Virus record (IMG/VR): IMGVR_UViG_3300029577_000119
Length of the DNA stretch: 4,793 bases
From: a virus
Lineage: Duplodnaviria; Heunggongvirae; Uroviricota; Caudoviricetes
Reading direction: 5' to 3' (one strand)
In this document: one piece after another, positions 142 to 4,793 of the stretch
Layout: every line of letters starts with the position of its first letter
Numbering within the stretch: the stretch's first letter is position 1
Program-made: the position numbers and the translations under genes
The notes under the pieces: model-generated
Databases searched by the model: none
What the model was told of the DNA's origin: nothing
Seen by the model: the letters and a program-made list of their open reading frames with translations, nothing else

Positions 142-329
142 TGAAAGTAAAAATAACTGCTTCTAATACCAGTTTTGTTAGTGTTGGTGATATTACAGAA
201 GTAATAACAAACCATGATGGAACCCAAGTTATGTGGTCTGATTTTTGTAAAAGATATGAGCGAGTTAGTTGGTGTAAACTCGTATGGGGCGTCGAATACG
301 AAGAATTACCTGAAATGCATGACGAATAA
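141..329 (+). CDS. hypothetical small protein (62 aa), AT-rich
   Basis: ORF-track ORF with ATG at 141 overlapping the upstream stop (TAATG); GGGGA 6-10 nt upstream could serve as SD. Visibly AT-rich (first 60 nt about 30% G+C by hand count) compared with downstream genes. Product not recognised. Confidence 0.55.
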   Translation: MKVKITASNTSFVSVGDITEVITNHDGTQVMWSDFCKRYERVSWCKLVWGVEYEELPEMHDE

Positions 330-334
330 GCACT

Positions 335-362
335 GTGTATTCATTCCAACGAGTGAATACAC
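335..362 (+). repeat. perfect inverted repeat GTGTATTCA-N10-TGAATACAC (hairpin or dimeric protein binding site)
   Basis: Read directly: arms 335-343 and 354-362 are exact reverse complements, 10-nt spacer ttccaacgag. Begins 6 nt after the stop of the 62-aa ORF. No downstream T-tract, so not a canonical intrinsic terminator. Confidence 0.5.
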
Positions 363-422
363 GGAGCAATGTCGCTCGTAACTAAACAGGAGCCGACTTG
401 TTCTGATTATTGGAAATCTTCT

Positions 423-450
423 TTGCCCTCCAGTGTGAGGGCAATTTTTT
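423..450 (+). terminator. rho-independent terminator, + strand orientation
   Basis: TTGCCCTC (423-430) / loop cagtgt / GAGGGCAA (437-444), perfect 8-bp GC-rich stem followed immediately by TTTTTT (445-450). On the opposite strand the hairpin is not followed by a T-run. Confidence 0.7.
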
Positions 451-462
451 GACGGAGGATAT

Positions 463-1431
463 ATGAGTGAAGTAACAGATTTAGTTGTTATTGAAAAAGC
501 AAATGCAATGACTGTATTTCAGTCTGCCGACCAGATTGAAGAAATCCTTCAAAAGGTTGAACGTGAAGTTATGTCCTTTGTGCCTGATATCACAACGGCA
601 AAGGGCAGAAAGGAGATCGCTTCTCTGGCGTATAAAGTTGCGCAGACGAAAACATATCTCGATGGTCTTGGAAAAGACCTTGTTGCTGAACTGAAGGAAA
701 TTCCAAAGCTAATTGATGCCAACCGCAAGACAGTGCGTGATCGCCTTGATGAGCTGAAATCCAAGGCACGCCAGCCTCTTACTGATTATGAGGAGGAACA
801 GGCACGGATTAAAGCCGAAGAAGAAGCTAAGGCAGCAGCTGAAGCTCTCGCAAAGCAAATTGAGTCTGACCATGAAATAGCTATTTTGATGGATCGCGAA
901 TTTGACCGCCAAAGAGAAGAGGCAAGACTCAAAGCGGAGCAGGAAAAGCGAGAGCATGAAGAACGCTTAAAAAGAGAAGCTGAAGAGAAAGCCAGAGCAG
1001 AAGCCGAAGCAAAGGCAAAAGCCGAAATTGAAGCAGCAGCAAGGCGAGAAGCAGAAGCTAAGGCCGCAGCGGAACGTGCAGAGCGTGAACGCATTGAAGC
1101 CGAGCAACGAGCACAGCGCGAAGCAAAAGAGGCAGCAGAACGAGCTGAAAGAGAAAAGCAGGCGGCAATTGAAGCAGAACGCCGAAAAGCACAGGAGGAG
1201 GCTGAACGAATCCGGCGCGAGGCTGAAGCAAAAGAGCAAGCCAGAATAGCAGAAGAAAAAAGAATCAAGGACGAAGAAGAGCGTAGAGCAAAGGATAAAG
1301 CTCACCGGAAAGAAGTAAATAACAAAATACTTGCTGACCTTATCAAGGTTGGCGCATCAGAAGATGTTGCTAAAAATATCATAACAGCCATCGTAAAAGG
1401 CGAAGTATTCGCAACAAAAATAACCTACTAA
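463..1431 (+). CDS. hypothetical protein with a long E/R/K/A-rich predicted single alpha-helix or coiled-coil segment (TolA-domain-II-like composition); function unknown
   Basis: 322-aa ORF; GGAGG at 454-458 upstream of ATG 463. Residues ~108-284 (nt ~784-1314) are almost exclusively E, A, K, R, Q (e.g. REAEEKARAEAEAKAKAEIEAAARREAEAKAAAERAERERIEAEQRAQREAKEAAERAEREKQAAIEAERRKAQEEAERIRREAEAKEQ), flanked by a ~107-aa N-terminal and ~38-aa C-terminal region of ordinary composition. No N-terminal hydrophobic segment. The many minus-strand ORFs over this span are shadows of the repetitive GAA/GCA/AAA codons. Confidence 0.8.
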   Translation: MSEVTDLVVIEKANAMTVFQSADQIEEILQKVEREVMSFVPDITTAKGRKEIASLAYKVAQTKTYLDGLGKDLVAELKEIPKLIDANRKTVRDRLDELKSKARQPLTDYEEEQARIKAEEEAKAAAEALAKQIESDHEIAILMDREFDRQREEARLKAEQEKREHEERLKREAEEKARAEAEAKAKAEIEAAARREAEAKAAAERAERERIEAEQRAQREAKEAAERAEREKQAAIEAERRKAQEEAERIRREAEAKEQARIAEEKRIKDEEERRAKDKAHRKEVNNKILADLIKVGASEDVAKNIITAIVKGEVFATKITY

Positions 1432-1454
1432 TAAACCAACATAAGGAACCACCC

Positions 1455-1586
1455 ATGATTTACGCAATCGCGGGAGGCGCTCGCATGGGTGCCTTCCAAC
1501 TAAATGAATCTTTACTTGAACGAATCACCCGTAAATTACGTGACGGATGGAAAAGAGTTGAGGTCTTATTATGCGCAATGAAATAG
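1455..1586 (+). CDS. cIII: cIII-like protein (FtsH inhibitor / lysogeny regulator homolog), 43 aa
   Basis: Not in ORF track (too short). ATG 1455 preceded by AAGGA at 1444-1448. Translation MIYAIAGGARMGAFQLNESLLERITRKLRDGWKRVEVLLCAMK* matches, from memory, the lambda CIII N-terminus and core amphipathic region (ESLLERITRKLRDGWKR). Shorter than lambda CIII (54 aa) at the C-terminus. Confidence 0.8.
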   Translation: MIYAIAGGARMGAFQLNESLLERITRKLRDGWKRVEVLLCAMK

Positions 1587-1723
1587 CCATCAATCACCAG
1601 ATGCTTCGTGCTGCACAGAACAAAGCAGTAATAGCCAGATTTATTGGTGATTCCAAAATGTGGTTTGAAGCAAATAAAGCGATGAAATCAGCTATCAACC
1701 TTCCGTGGTATCGCAGGAAATGA
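1571..1723 (+). CDS. kil: Kil-like small protein (putative host cell-division inhibitor), 50 aa
   Basis: ATG 1571 with GAGGT 8-12 nt upstream; overlaps the 3' end of cIII by 16 nt in another frame. Translation MRNEIAINHQMLRAAQNKAVIARFIGDSKMWFEANKAMKSAINLPWYRRK*. The IARFIGDSKM motif resembles my recollection of lambda Kil (..ATFIGDEKM..), and the position directly after cIII matches kil in lambda and P22. Identity is from memory and position only. Confidence 0.55.
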   Translation: MRNEIAINHQMLRAAQNKAVIARFIGDSKMWFEANKAMKSAINLPWYRRK

Positions 1724-1878
1724 GTTTTACAGATAACTGGTCAGACGAAGAATTCATTCGTCAGATGAAAGAATTAATCGGTAACGAAGGAGATATTCAT
1801 GTCACTTGCAACCACAGTGAAGGAGAGCAAGTTACAGAGACGCATGTACACGCAGAAAGCTCTCTGGTATCGCCATAA
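1720..1878 (+). CDS. hypothetical small acidic protein (52 aa), candidate 1 for the kil-erf slot
   Basis: ATG 1720 overlaps kil stop (ATGA at 1720-1723). Translation MSFTDNWSDEEFIRQMKELIGNEGDIHVTCNHSEGEQVTETHVHAESSLVSP*. No well-spaced SD. Overlaps the alternative ORF 1799..1969 in a different frame. Confidence 0.35.
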   Translation: MSFTDNWSDEEFIRQMKELIGNEGDIHVTCNHSEGEQVTETHVHAESSLVSP

Positions 1879-1969
1879 TGGCGATCGCGAAGGAATGCGG
1901 GTATGCCTTAATTTGTCCAGAGTCGAAGTTTTAAATCAGCGTTATTTCCTTGGGGAATGTCCATTCTGA
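1799..1969 (+). CDS. hypothetical small basic protein (56 aa), candidate 2 for the kil-erf slot (arf position in P22)
   Basis: ATG 1799 preceded by consensus SD AAGGAG (1786-1791) at 7-nt spacing. Translation MSLATTVKESKLQRRMYTQKALWYRHNGDREGMRVCLNLSRVEVLNQRYFLGECPF*. Ends 10 nt before the erf ATG. Not in ORF track (under 60 aa). Confidence 0.45.
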   Translation: MSLATTVKESKLQRRMYTQKALWYRHNGDREGMRVCLNLSRVEVLNQRYFLGECPF

Positions 1970-1979
1970 GAACAAACAT

Positions 1980-2585
1980 ATGAGCAAAGAATTTTACGCA
2001 AGACTGGCAGCTATTCAGGAGAATCTGAACGCGCCAAAAAATCAGTACAACTCATTCGGTAAATATAAATACAGAAGCTGCGAAGATATTCTTGAAGGCG
2101 TTAAGCCGTTACTGAATGGTCTGTTTTTATCAATCAGCGATGAAGTTGTGTTGATTGGTGATCGGTATTACGTGAAAGCCACGGCAACTATTACCGATGG
2201 CGAAAACAGTCATACGGCAACCGCTCTTGCACGAGAGGAAGAAAGCAAGAAAGGAATGGATTCTGCACAAGTTACGGGAGCTACAAGCTCTTATGCACGC
2301 AAGTATTGCCTCAATGGTTTGTTCGGCATTGATGATGCGAAAGATGCAGATACAGACGAGCATAAACATCAGCAGAACGCAGCAGCAAAGCAATCAAAAC
2401 CATCACCTACACCTGAACAGGTTCTAAAAGCATTCACTGACGCAGCAATGCAGAAAAACACCGTAGAAGAGCTTAAACAGGCGTTCGCCAAAGCGTGGAA
2501 GATGCTCGAAGGCACACCGGAGCAGCACAAAGCGCAGGACGTTTACAACATCAGACGAGACGAATTAGAAGGAGCTGCTGCTTAA
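1980..2585 (+). CDS. erf: Erf-family single-strand annealing protein (essential recombination function)
   Basis: ORF-track ORF 1950..2585 begins at a TTG; the ATG at 1980 gives MSKEFYARLAAIQENLNAPKNQYNSFGKYKYRSCEDILEGVKPLL.., which closely matches my recollection of the phage P22 Erf N-terminus. 201 aa. Followed immediately by ssb with TAATG overlap. Confidence 0.85.
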   Translation: MSKEFYARLAAIQENLNAPKNQYNSFGKYKYRSCEDILEGVKPLLNGLFLSISDEVVLIGDRYYVKATATITDGENSHTATALAREEESKKGMDSAQVTGATSSYARKYCLNGLFGIDDAKDADTDEHKHQQNAAAKQSKPSPTPEQVLKAFTDAAMQKNTVEELKQAFAKAWKMLEGTPEQHKAQDVYNIRRDELEGAAA

Positions 2586-2969
2586 TGGCACATTCGATTA
2601 CTGTAAGACTAAACAAGCCCGCAAGAGAGTTTCAGGCCGNNNNNNNNNNATATCGGATTCAACATCCGTGCTGGCGTTCAGTATTACGATCGCCAGACAA
2701 AAAAGAAAGAATGGACAAACTACAGCGCCGTTGTATTTGCCAAGCCGGGAGCGCAAGCGGATTACTACCGTAGTGTTCTTGTTGAAGGTGGAATTGTGGA
2801 AATTACCGGAGAAAACATCAGGGTTGATGTTTATCAGGGGCAAAATGGTCAATCAATCACTCTTGAATTACTGAATGCAAAGATTGGATTTGCAGCTTCA
2901 GGAAATGGCCAGCAGCAAAGTAGCAATCATCAAAATCATCCTGAATACGACGATTCAATTCCCTTCTAG
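2585..2969 (+). CDS. ssb: phage single-stranded DNA-binding protein (SSB), interrupted by an assembly gap
   Basis: ATG 2585 overlaps erf stop (TAATG). N-terminal MAHSITVRLNKPAREFQA runs into the N-run. After the gap, the frame with codons at 2652.. reads IGFNIRAGVQYYDRQTKKKEWTNYSAVVFAKPGAQADYYRSVLVEGGIVEITGENIRVDVYQGQNGQSITLELLNAKIGFAASGNGQQQSSNHQNHPEYDDSIPF*, ending in the acidic DD(S)IPF tail diagnostic of bacterial/phage SSB. The two halves are in different frames relative to window coordinates, so the 10 Ns do not represent the true gap length. Confidence 0.7.
2640..2649. other. run of 10 N (assembly gap or masked bases)
   Basis: Ten consecutive n characters in the sequence, inside the ssb reading frame. 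Confidence 0.95.
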
Positions 2970-2992
2970 ATTAGCAAAATAAGGCTCCCATT

Positions 2993-3289
2993 ATGCCAGC
3001 GCCTCTGTATGGTGCGGATGACCCGCGCAACTGCTCCGGTAGCTCCAAGGCGGAGGTGCTGGAAAATATCAAAAATAATTTCGACACGTTTATCGATCTT
3101 CCACCAGAAACAAAAGCAGAACGGATGTACCGACGCGATATACAACTCGCGTTAAAAGATGAGAAGGACCGAACAAACGAAACAGCAATGAGACCGTTGC
3201 GAAAAGAGACAATAGACAAATTCCCTGAATATATCGACCCGCGCCTGCGTAATTACCGCTCACGCTATGGCGCTATCAGTAATGACTGA
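2993..3289 (+). CDS. hypothetical protein, 98 aa; possibly Abc2-like anti-RecBCD protein (unverified)
   Basis: ORF-track ORF; ATG 2993 with AAGG 8 nt upstream. Translation [98 protein letters not shown]. The Abc2 suggestion rests only on size (P22 Abc2 is about this length) and position distal to the recombinase in the pL operon; sequence not confirmed from memory. Confidence 0.6.
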
Positions 3290-3299
3290 GGAATTTACC

Positions 3300-3464
3300 A
3301 TGAGAGGACTTGCATACAATCCCGGCATTCTTCCGGCAGAAATGATTATTCGCCAACGCGTAAAGCCAATGCCATCGAGAGAGAAATTGCTTAAGAGAAA
3401 GAGTTTCGGTTCTGTTAATGACAACAAATATCTGAATGCAATGTTGCGGAGTGGGAAGAAATGA
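3300..3464 (+). CDS. hypothetical small basic protein (54 aa)
   Basis: ORF-track ORF 3267..3464; I prefer the in-frame ATG at 3300, which has GAGGA at 3288-3292 (7-nt spacing) and begins after the 98-aa ORF stop (3287-3289). Translation [54 protein letters not shown]. Stop overlaps the next ATG (ATGA 3461-3464). Confidence 0.5.
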
Positions 3465-4042
3465 AACAAATGTCACTAATTAAGATGGATGGTTTTCTGA
3501 AAGGTAAATGCATCCCATGTGATTTAAAGGTTAACGAAACAAACGCTGAATATCTGGTGCGTAAGTTCGGTGAACTTGAATCAAAACTAGAAACGGCGTT
3601 GCGGGAGTGTCGTTCTGCTGGAATCACGATTGATAACCTTGAGGCCAAGTGCGCGGCGCTGGCTGTGGAGAATGCGTGGCTGAATAAATTTATCGTACAG
3701 AGTTGCTACGTGTTTGACGGCGAGCAGGGTGAACTATCTGATGCGTATATCTGCGCAATAGACGGAAGGATGCCGCAAACCCAAGTCACCGACGCTTTTT
3801 GGGATGAAGTGAAGACTGAAGCACGCAAGGAAGGCGCTTACTTTGTGGCGAACAGAATGCTGGCTGCCTGGGATGCTGGTTTTATTGATGATACTGCGAA
3901 GAACGCAGCGGATATTGCCAGGATGATTCTTACCTCTACTGAGTTTATGGCTAATGCGCCGGAAGGCGATTTCGATCGCTCGTTCGCTGATGGTGTACTC
4001 GAAGACATCGCCGCCCAGATTCGCAAGGGGGACGCGCAATGA
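3461..4042 (+). CDS. hypothetical acidic protein, 193 aa (phage accessory 'ea-region' type gene)
   Basis: ORF-track ORF; ATG 3461 overlaps upstream stop (ATGA). Contains a CxxC pair near the N-terminus (CIPCD), a predicted helical segment ([40 protein letters not shown]) and an acidic C-terminal half. Not recognised. Confidence 0.75.
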
Positions 4043-4581
4043 GCAACATCGACAAACAGGCGCTGCGTGAAATCGCAGCGGCAGCAGTTGGCGCACATGA
4101 GCGCCTTAGTGTTATGCCGCCTGATGACATTTTCGATATCTCACTGGCAGAAGGAACTCAGCTTGATGCAGATATCACTGCCTTGAACGCGCTGAACTCC
4201 GCAGCAAACCCCACTACCGTGCTGGCGCTGCTGGCATCGCTGGAAGCCGCAGAGAAGCGCATTGCAGAACTGGAAGCGCGTGCATTCAATCCTGCAATTC
4301 TGGATGTGATAGCAGAGCGCCAGCGGCAACAATCGGTTGAGGGGTGGATGCCAGAGCATGATGACGAACACTGCAACGGGGAACTGGCAATGGCGGCGGT
4401 TTGTTACATAAACGAAACAGGAACTGTTAACCGCAATGGTGGCAAGCCGTGGGGGTGGCCTTGGGATACTTCATGGTGGAAGCCAAATGCCCGCCGTCTC
4501 AACCTGGTAAAAGCAGGGGCTTTAATTCTGGCTGAAATCGAACGCATAGACCGCGCCGCTGGCATCGGTAAGGGGGAGTGA
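4039..4581 (+). CDS. hypothetical protein, 180 aa; possibly Ead/Ea22-like family (unverified), with a Trp-rich C-terminal motif
   Basis: ORF-track ORF; ATG 4039 overlaps upstream stop (ATGA 4039-4042), AAGGGGGA upstream. The segment TTVLALLASLEAAEKRIAELEARA resembles a motif I associate with Ead/Ea22-like prophage proteins. C-terminal part carries HDDEHCNGELAMAAVCY and GGKPWGWPWDTSWWKP. Family assignment is from memory only. Confidence 0.75.
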   Translation: MSNIDKQALREIAAAAVGAHERLSVMPPDDIFDISLAEGTQLDADITALNALNSAANPTTVLALLASLEAAEKRIAELEARAFNPAILDVIAERQRQQSVEGWMPEHDDEHCNGELAMAAVCYINETGTVNRNGGKPWGWPWDTSWWKPNARRLNLVKAGALILAEIERIDRAAGIGKGE

Positions 4582-4793
4582 TGCTTCAACATCAAATGCA
4601 GCCAACATTTAACACCTGCATGGCTACCTGTGTAGCAATGGTTGCTGGTCAGCCTGTTGACGAGGTGGTTGCTCGCTGGCACCAGGCTTTTCACGACAAA
4701 ACAGACTGGCTGGATGATGCCCTGGATTATTACAAAATCCCTTACTTCTACGGCAGCCAAAGAAAATGTGAACTGCTTTATGGGTTTATTTAT
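4581..4793 (+). CDS. 5' part of a CDS continuing past the window; N-terminus has a papain-like/C39-like cysteine peptidase motif (tentative)
   Basis: ATG 4581 overlaps upstream stop (TGATG 4579-4583) and is preceded by strong SD AAGGGGGAG (4570-4578). Open to the window end: MLQHQMQPTFNTCMATCVAMVAGQPVDEVVARWHQAFHDKTDWLDDALDYYKIPYFYGSQRKCELLYGFIY.. The Q-x6-C-x3-C-x-AM arrangement resembles the Gln (oxyanion) and catalytic Cys signature of C39-type peptidases (Q..C-G-x-A-C-L-x-M). The catalytic His/Asp would lie beyond the window. Confidence 0.6.
   Translation, partial: MLQHQMQPTFNTCMATCVAMVAGQPVDEVVARWHQAFHDKTDWLDDALDYYKIPYFYGSQRKCELLYGFIY

Follow-up and report, generated by a model that had tools for sequence, protein, structure and literature searches.

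An Ead/Ea22-like phage protein carries a widespread, unnamed C-terminal domain probably derived from the MazG fold

The window analysed here is a stretch of 4,793 nucleotides (nt) from a tailed-phage genome (Caudoviricetes, IMG/VR record IMGVR_UViG_3300029577_000119), and our subject is the gene at 4039-4581, which encodes a modular Ead/Ea22-like protein. A first reading of the letters alone (the original prediction) had described this protein as combining an Ea22-like helical motif with an unusual Trp-rich C-terminal motif. We find that the Trp-rich motif belongs to a widespread domain without a name, and that this domain is very probably, judging from profile comparisons, a remote homologue of the small MazG-like nucleoside triphosphate (NTP) pyrophosphohydrolases. 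The gene and its parts, with helices taken from AlphaFold2 (AF2) models, are the following.

4039..4581, + strand: complete target gene for the Ead/Ea22-like modular protein; ATG start, 180 amino acids plus stop in the list of open reading frames (ORFs)
4042..4281, + strand: N-terminal Ead/Ea22 module, residues 2-81 (Pfam PF13935), with AF2 helices 6-25, 39-53 and 58-82
4210..4284, + strand: long helix of linker or coiled-coil type, residues 58-82 (AF2), which holds LALLASLEAAEKRIAELEARA
4239..4277, + strand: 39-nt mosaic joint encoding LEAAEKRIAELEA, common to otherwise unrelated ea22-like genes
4285..4566, + strand: C-terminal domain, residues 83-176, helical, widespread and unnamed, probably derived from the MazG fold (AF2, HMMER, hhalign)

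The ORF at 4039-4581 is a genuine gene. Its start overlaps the stop of the upstream ORF in the sequence ATGA (4039-4042) and its stop overlaps the start of the next ORF in TGATG (4579-4583), as is usual for coupled phage genes. Databases already list the protein as Ead/Ea22-like: the RefSeq name for the gene is 'ead/Ea22-like family protein', and an identical protein of 180 residues (P0304), present on 7 contigs, is recorded as 'ead/Ea22-like family protein [Escherichia coli]'. All three motifs quoted in the original prediction are present, namely LALLASLEAAEKRIAELEARA at residues 62-82 (nt 4222-4284), HDDEHCNGELAMAAVCY at residues 107-123 (nt 4357-4407) and GGKPWGWPWDTSWWKP at residues 134-149 (nt 4438-4485). 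Both the whole protein and its C-terminal domain are acidic, with isoelectric points (pI) of 4.8 and 5.4, respectively. The antisense ORFs match no PHROG family, and a scan for promoters and terminators gave results at chance level.

The N-terminal module fits the profile of the Ead/Ea22 family (PF13935 / IPR025153), with an E value of 4e-17 and a score of 63.5 bits (the cut-off being 27) over profile positions 1-89 of 139. The Ea22 resemblance first noticed by eye is thus real at the level of the family profile, while a BLASTP comparison of the target with lambda Ea22 is not significant (E 0.25). [quoted passage not shown] The target resembles the Ea22 of lambda and Shiga-toxin (Stx) phages in its modular layout, in which a helical linker joins an N-terminal segment to a C-terminal domain that can be swapped, and like the Ea22 genes it belongs to the accessory genes of the early-left (exo-xis-equivalent) region of a lambdoid phage (PMC10834534). 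It differs in its linker, a predicted helix of only about 25 residues (AF2 helix 58-82), and in its C-terminal domain. The latter is predicted to be all-alpha and is probably MazG-derived, whereas that of lambda Ea22 is a mixed alpha/beta dimer, and it is not the DUF551 domain of Ea22 V2. A tblastn search with the C-terminal domain returned no Stx-phage record, so that the domain is seemingly none of the V1, V2 and V3 domains.

We then characterized residues 83-176 as a unit of their own. In the AF2 model of the full protein (mean predicted local distance difference test, pLDDT, of 81.7) helices extend to residue 82 and are followed by a separate helical domain. Modelled alone, this domain reaches a pLDDT of 92 and a predicted template modelling score of 0.84, and comprises three main helices, a short helix and a Trp loop. 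The original prediction had held that the C-terminal region is not a purely structural coiled coil, and an independent, compact helical domain that is also found on its own bears this out. When 1.84 billion cluster representatives were searched exhaustively with HMMER, 15,618 proteins, for the most part from proteobacterial prophages and phages, matched at E <= 1e-3, and 9,041 did so at E <= 1e-10; a homologue search by profile gave close enterobacterial relatives only and added no diversity. The domain is autonomous, standing alone or behind many unrelated N-termini. It forms the C-terminus in 232 of 262 matches, and stand-alone forms of about 100 amino acids exist; the identifiable N-terminal partners, a minority among 138, are Ead_Ea22 in 21 cases, a Lar zinc ribbon in 4, DUF550 in 1 and a primase zinc ribbon in 1.

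The distribution of the domain is equally broad. It occurs in 169 records of temperate and lytic phages, 106 of them from Pseudomonas, with further hosts in Rhodobacter, Xanthomonas, Acinetobacter, Burkholderia, Microbacterium and Synechococcus, as well as in prophage-like regions of alpha-, beta- and gammaproteobacteria and of a few Actinomycetota. Identity is 55-60% across the prophages of the three proteobacterial classes, and the domain is still recognisable in actinobacterial phages. In the phage records listed the proteins are mostly 'hypothetical protein' or unannotated, and a few are named after a fused Lar or zinc-ribbon domain or an overlapping HNH gene. Searched by sequence, either as the single protein or as a family profile, residues 83-176 have no match in Pfam, NCBIfam or the PDB; the only families they match are numerous function-unknown PHROGs, at the C-terminal end of these. 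Lowering the Pfam threshold to E 10 for 37 family members produced scattered noise, with no MazG or DUF550 among it. The PADLOC models gave no match at E 0.1 to the target protein or to one stand-alone family member. The original prediction had glimpsed this domain through its Trp-rich motif, without seeing that the motif marks a very large unnamed family.

Evidence for the origin of the domain comes from structure and profile comparisons. A Foldseek search of the PDB with the full-length model, which is dominated by the long N-terminal helices, gave nothing at E <= 0.001. Against the viral models of BFVD, Foldseek returned family members first. Next came a DUF7768 protein (E 0.02) and, with a probability of 0.91, gp039 of Pantoea phage AAS21, which is annotated as a 'putative nucleoside triphosphate pyrophosphohydrolase'; weaker matches were a dATP/dGTP diphosphohydrolase and proteins with a 'nucleotide modification associated domain 1' (NMAD1). 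Several gp039 homologues are named 'NTP pyrophosphatase (non-canonical NTP hydrolase)' by JGI. Of 75 gp039 homologues collected, 58 were aligned (alignment A5). The A5 profile matches the solved MazG-like proteins 5ie9 (3.7e-4), Bacillus subtilis YpjD (2gta, 1.4e-3) and SSO3215 (1vmg, 1.8e-3), and 2 of 3 A5 members scanned show sub-threshold Pfam MazG matches. Another small MazG-like protein, AF0060, is placed by SCOP in the all-alpha NTP pyrophosphohydrolase superfamily (PMC2238974).

Comparison of the domain-family alignment (A2) with A5 by hhalign gave a probability of 67-77% and a P value of 2e-5 to 5e-5 over 73-80 columns, that is, over the whole domain. The real score of 30.3 compares with 14.9 for a reversed A5 and 18.5 for the best of 60 column shuffles. 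This is further supported by a search of ORFs: the A5 hidden Markov model (HMM), run by hmmsearch at E <= 0.01 against 10,107 six-frame ORFs from all loci collected, found 23 matches, made up of 2 true MazG-like genes and 21 ORFs that bear the domain, with no unrelated ORF among them. The signal appears only with the 58-sequence gp039 profile, as hhalign comparisons of the domain family with single sequences (DUF550, AAS21 gp039) are not significant; for the single DUF550 sequence the probability is 0.4%. The motifs on which the alignment and the later argument depend are listed here.

4315..4329, + strand: helix-1 signature E93-R-Q-R-Q97 (ERxRQ), aligned to ER.RQ of A5 by hhalign and hmmsearch
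4357..4371, + strand: H107-D-D-E-H111, standing in place of the EE in the catalytic EExGE helix of MazG (deletion of 7 residues, hhalign)
4456..4485, + strand: core of the Trp-rich loop, W140-P-W-D-T-S-W-W-K-P149 (WPWxxxWWKP), inserted in comparison with MazG-like proteins and without A5 counterpart
4492..4557, + strand: last helix, residues 152-173, RRLNLVKAGALILAEIERIDRA, homologous to MazG-like R.ELVQVAAVAIA.IE.LDR (hhalign, hmmsearch)

Relative to the MazG-like fold, helix 1 (ER.RQ...G) and the GE of helix 2 are kept, as is the last helix, where the MazG-like R.[EN]LV[QK].[AG]A..A.IE.LDR corresponds to R153-x-N155-LVKAGALILAEIERIDR of the domain; the charged residues shared in helices 1 and 3 are probably fold-stabilising. 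In comparison with MazG-like proteins (the gp039 family, YpjD 2GTA, 5IE9, SSO3215 1VMG and AF0060 2P06), a 7-residue deletion takes out the EE of EExGE, and the domain gains HDD-x-H and an insertion of about 20 residues with WPWxxxWWKP. Unlike the small MazG-like proteins, it is mostly fused C-terminally to unrelated modules. Canonical MazG enzymes have four acidic Mg-binding residues, ExxE...ExxD (PMC10014863). In the domain family these four positions are, in turn, deleted, occupied by E or D in 79% of homologues (E115), by D in 51% or N in 45% (position 155), and always by Lys or Arg (position 158, which is Asp in canonical MazG and Gln in gp039). As the Mg-binding tetrad is lost, the domain does not appear to be a canonical MazG enzyme. 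MazZ and DUF550 (PF04447) proteins resemble it in being phage all-alpha NTP pyrophosphohydrolases of the same accessory regions, and one protein fuses DUF550 to the domain, but the domain lacks any PF04447 match, with the target searched at E 1 and 37 members at E 10. What is new is the placement of this very common, unnamed C-terminal domain as a remodelled branch of the MazG superfamily.

Conservation was determined from 121 representative homologues drawn from clusters at 50% identity. In helix 1, E93, R94, R96 and Q97 are conserved at 99-100%, followed by E101 (98%) and by G102 and W103 (both 100%). H107 (98%), D108 (100%) and D109 (98%) form an almost invariant HDD, position 111 is H in 72% and Y in 26%, and C122 (90%) precedes an invariant Y123 (100%). 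The Trp loop is conserved throughout its core, with W140 and P141 at 100%, W142 at 99%, W146 at 96%, W147 at 95% and K148 at 98%; the stretch between Y123 and WPW varies in length from 9 to 26 residues. R153 reaches 99%, and the last helix carries E166 (95%), E168 (93%), R169 (99%), D171 (98%) and R172 (100%). Position 158 is K or R in 100%. C112, N113 and the 'GGKPWG' lead-in are not conserved, C112 and the lead-in being lineage-specific. The Trp content of 6 in 98 residues (6.1%) is more than chance would give. Conservation of the Trp-rich motif in homologues, the lack of which the original prediction had named among the grounds for its refutation, is therefore pronounced (WPWxxxWWK 95-100%, HDD 98-100%, Y123 100%), and the near-invariance of polar and aromatic residues among representatives that differ by 40-45% suggests a functional site. 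In two distant members, gp54 of Xanthomonas phage FoX1 and gp182 of Microbacterium phage Zooman, conservation is reduced to ERxRQ, G102, P105, D108, Y123, WPW, [FW]K and KAGAL. An HD-domain phosphohydrolase, suggested by H107-D108, was considered and dropped, having no profile or fold support.

The genes found around the domain are those of a typical early accessory or replication region, and include DUF551, HNH, integrase, DnaB, methylases, ParB, O/P, DUF550 and DUF4406 families. In three loci the neighbours are related to nucleotides. The gene for Zooman gp182 (L085 2162-2776), in which the domain sits behind a further N-terminal domain, lies between the genes for both ribonucleotide reductase subunits. 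In a Roseateles aquae prophage (L153 2423-3294) a canonical MazG-like ORF with LGEEFGEL overlaps the start of the domain gene, and a Dcm-type cytosine methylase follows. In phage AUS531phi a single block contains DUF550, DUF4406 and a Lar-domain fusion. These are single cases and are suggestive only.

The target gene itself is mosaic. Shigella phage Sf101 matches positions 323-4029 of the window at 95% identity, and mEp043 and Stx1a phages match other parts of it at 94-95%; similarity to all of these ends inside the target gene, at about 4029-4274, and that to mEp043 and mEp213 stops at about 4244. The 39-nt segment 4239-4277 lies here and is 97-100% identical in 15 phage records (HK620 hkaG, HK633, HK106, CUS-3 and Stx2a phages), the flanks being non-matching. 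It is probably a recombination joint for the exchange of Ea22 N-modules and C-terminal domains. Such module shuffling agrees with two further observations: protein P0048 joins the first 75 residues of the upstream ORF (3461-4042) to the C-terminal domain of the target, and among the PHROGs phrog_14548 covers both the upstream and the target ORF and phrog_368 consists of the Ea22 module and the C-terminal part of the upstream ORF.

Of 5,426 complete E. coli genomes, only 19 contain the C-terminal 300 nt of the gene. In a prophage of E. coli ABWA45 (L001 6001-6543) the target gene is found at 95.5% identity in the nin region, in the order ren, HNH gene, target gene, DUF551 gene, ninE, which places it there in the rightward and not the leftward operon. 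The break of similarity inside the gene, its rarity in complete genomes and the nin-region copy mark it as a mobile accessory gene. At the site of Sf101 that is equivalent to the target (L002 2656-3836), gp22 carries a 58%-identical allele of the domain on another N-terminus and is followed by gp21, an Ead/Ea22 plus DUF551 protein, an arrangement indicating that the locus holds tandem modular genes.

As a whole, the window represents the early-left region of a phage of P22-like or lambdoid type, with Erf, the anti-RecBCD protein Abc2 and kil/cIII homologues among its genes; the target lies downstream of these. The other features of the window are as follows.

463-1431: TolA-like protein of 322 amino acids with a long, highly charged middle rich in Glu, Lys, Arg and Ala; matches phrog_1376 and is called 'TolA' in one phage record
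1950-2585: Erf (PF04404)
2640-2649: run of 10 N between erf and abc2, which breaks the ORFs there
2993-3289: Abc2 anti-RecBCD protein (PF11043)
3461..4042, + strand: upstream translationally coupled gene of 193 amino acids, matching phrog_614, phrog_368 and phrog_14548
4581..4793, + strand: downstream coupled gene, cut by the end of the window; phrog_4049, E 3.6e-23

In Sf101 a hypothetical gene, gp26, sits between erf and abc2. The upstream gene at 3461-4042 is a second modular protein gene of the same shuffling set as the target. In 5 viral loci, as well as in E. coli ABWA45, the target gene is accompanied by a phrog_4049 gene such as that at 4581-4793. This downstream ORF has no Pfam match; its N-terminal sequence 'NTCMATCVAM' recalls what we take to be the catalytic-Cys region of papain-like peptidases.

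From these data we tentatively propose, with a probability of roughly 0.45, that the Ea22 module oligomerises the protein while the MazG-fold domain offers a pocket in which a nucleotide-like ligand either binds or undergoes hydrolysis by a non-canonical route. By analogy with lambda Ea22 and Ea22 V3, residues 2-81 would probably be responsible for oligomerisation. The domain (83-176) may in addition dimerise as MazG-like proteins do, and its pocket would be lined by H107, D108, D109, Y123, the Trp side chains, K148, R153 and K158. A nucleotide-like ligand entering this pocket might be sequestered or cleaved by chemistry other than that of MazG. The protein would act early in infection, expressed from a pL-type operon that also holds erf and abc2. 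The original prediction had guessed at a ligand-, metal- or nucleotide-binding pocket from the cluster of aromatic and His/Asp/Cys residues. The remote MazG-like homology lends this guess indirect support; against it, the MazG metal tetrad is lost and the Cys of HDDEHC is not conserved.

Several points weigh against a nucleotide pocket. The Mg tetrad that defines MazG is not kept, and FoX1 gp54 and Zooman gp182 are without the second D of HDD and most of EIERxDR, so that any HDD metal site is not universal. That the conserved residues meet in one pocket is an assumption. The domain has no conserved partner gene, 260 neighbours falling into 224 clusters. In the literature searched we found no experiment on any member of the domain family, and no functional data on Ea22-like proteins, on an anti-defence role for them or on DUF7768.

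The rival that has to be taken most seriously, although we consider it rather unlikely, is that the domain is a pseudoenzyme, a protein-binding module on a MazG scaffold. Its Trp loop and charged surface would grip a conserved host or phage protein and, like lambda Ea22, modulate lysis-lysogeny or host physiology without a small-molecule ligand. Exposed Trp clusters are often protein interfaces, and the loss of the catalytic tetrad, like the acidic character of the protein and of its domain, is in line with such a role. Lambda Ea22 is pro-lysogenic, with no partner reported for it, and Ea22 C-terminal domains are interchangeable acidic modules (PMC10834534). There is also a precedent in staphylococcal phages, whose all-alpha dimeric dUTPases have a second role as derepressors that bind proteins (PMC5608427). 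However, a host target would need to be as conserved as the domain, which is 55-60% identical across prophages of three proteobacterial classes. A lysogeny-specific role is made unlikely by the presence of the domain in lytic Pseudomonas phages, and the set of invariant residues (H, D, D, K, R and Y) has more the look of a site for a small ligand.

Two further readings are much less probable. An ordinary MazG-type house-cleaning enzyme, hydrolysing NTPs and deoxynucleoside triphosphates (dNTPs) in the canonical Mg2+-dependent manner, would suit the remote homology, the DUF550 fusion in one family member and the abundance of phage MazG and MazZ enzymes (PMC8342488, PMC6850273). We regard it as very improbable, since the domain lacks the acidic tetrad and none of the 37 members matches Pfam MazG or DUF550 even at E 10; the canonical MazG-like gene beside the domain gene in the Roseateles prophage argues against redundancy. 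About as improbable, in our estimate, is that the Trp loop binds nucleic acid or a membrane interface and that the domain tethers its variable N-modules to DNA, RNA or membrane. Zinc ribbons are frequent among the N-terminal partners (Lar, and Cys motifs of primase and DnaJ type), and invariant Arg and Lys lie next to the Trp residues, but neither fold nor profile comparisons showed a similarity of the domain to DNA- or RNA-binding domains, and it is net acidic. It also has no hydrophobic segment, and in the AF2 model the loop is part of a confidently folded globular unit.

A bolder form of the nucleotide-pocket proposal can be formulated, which we consider distinctly unlikely. Here the domain would found a very large phage-specific MazG branch in which a Trp/His/Asp/Lys cage captures or cleaves a signalling or modified nucleotide, for example an immune second messenger, an alarmone or a non-canonical dNTP, and replaces the Mg-dependent NTP pyrophosphohydrolase site. 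Phages would add this portable host-takeover or anti-defence unit to Ea22 or zinc-ribbon (Lar-type) front ends.

Ea22-type genes are among the earliest expressed in lambdoid and Shiga-toxin phages and bias the lysis-lysogeny decision. No biochemical activity has been reported for any Ea22 C-terminal domain, and the probable link to the MazG fold gives a testable lead on what such a domain may bind. With more than 15,000 sequence clusters, in Proteobacteria and in actinobacterial phages, the domain is among the commonest unnamed phage domains in this analysis, and its link to MazG justifies the definition of a new domain family. If the domain is inert, it would be a clear example of an enzyme fold reused as a binding scaffold. 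If its ligand is a signalling nucleotide, it would represent a new class of phage counter-defence or host-takeover module.

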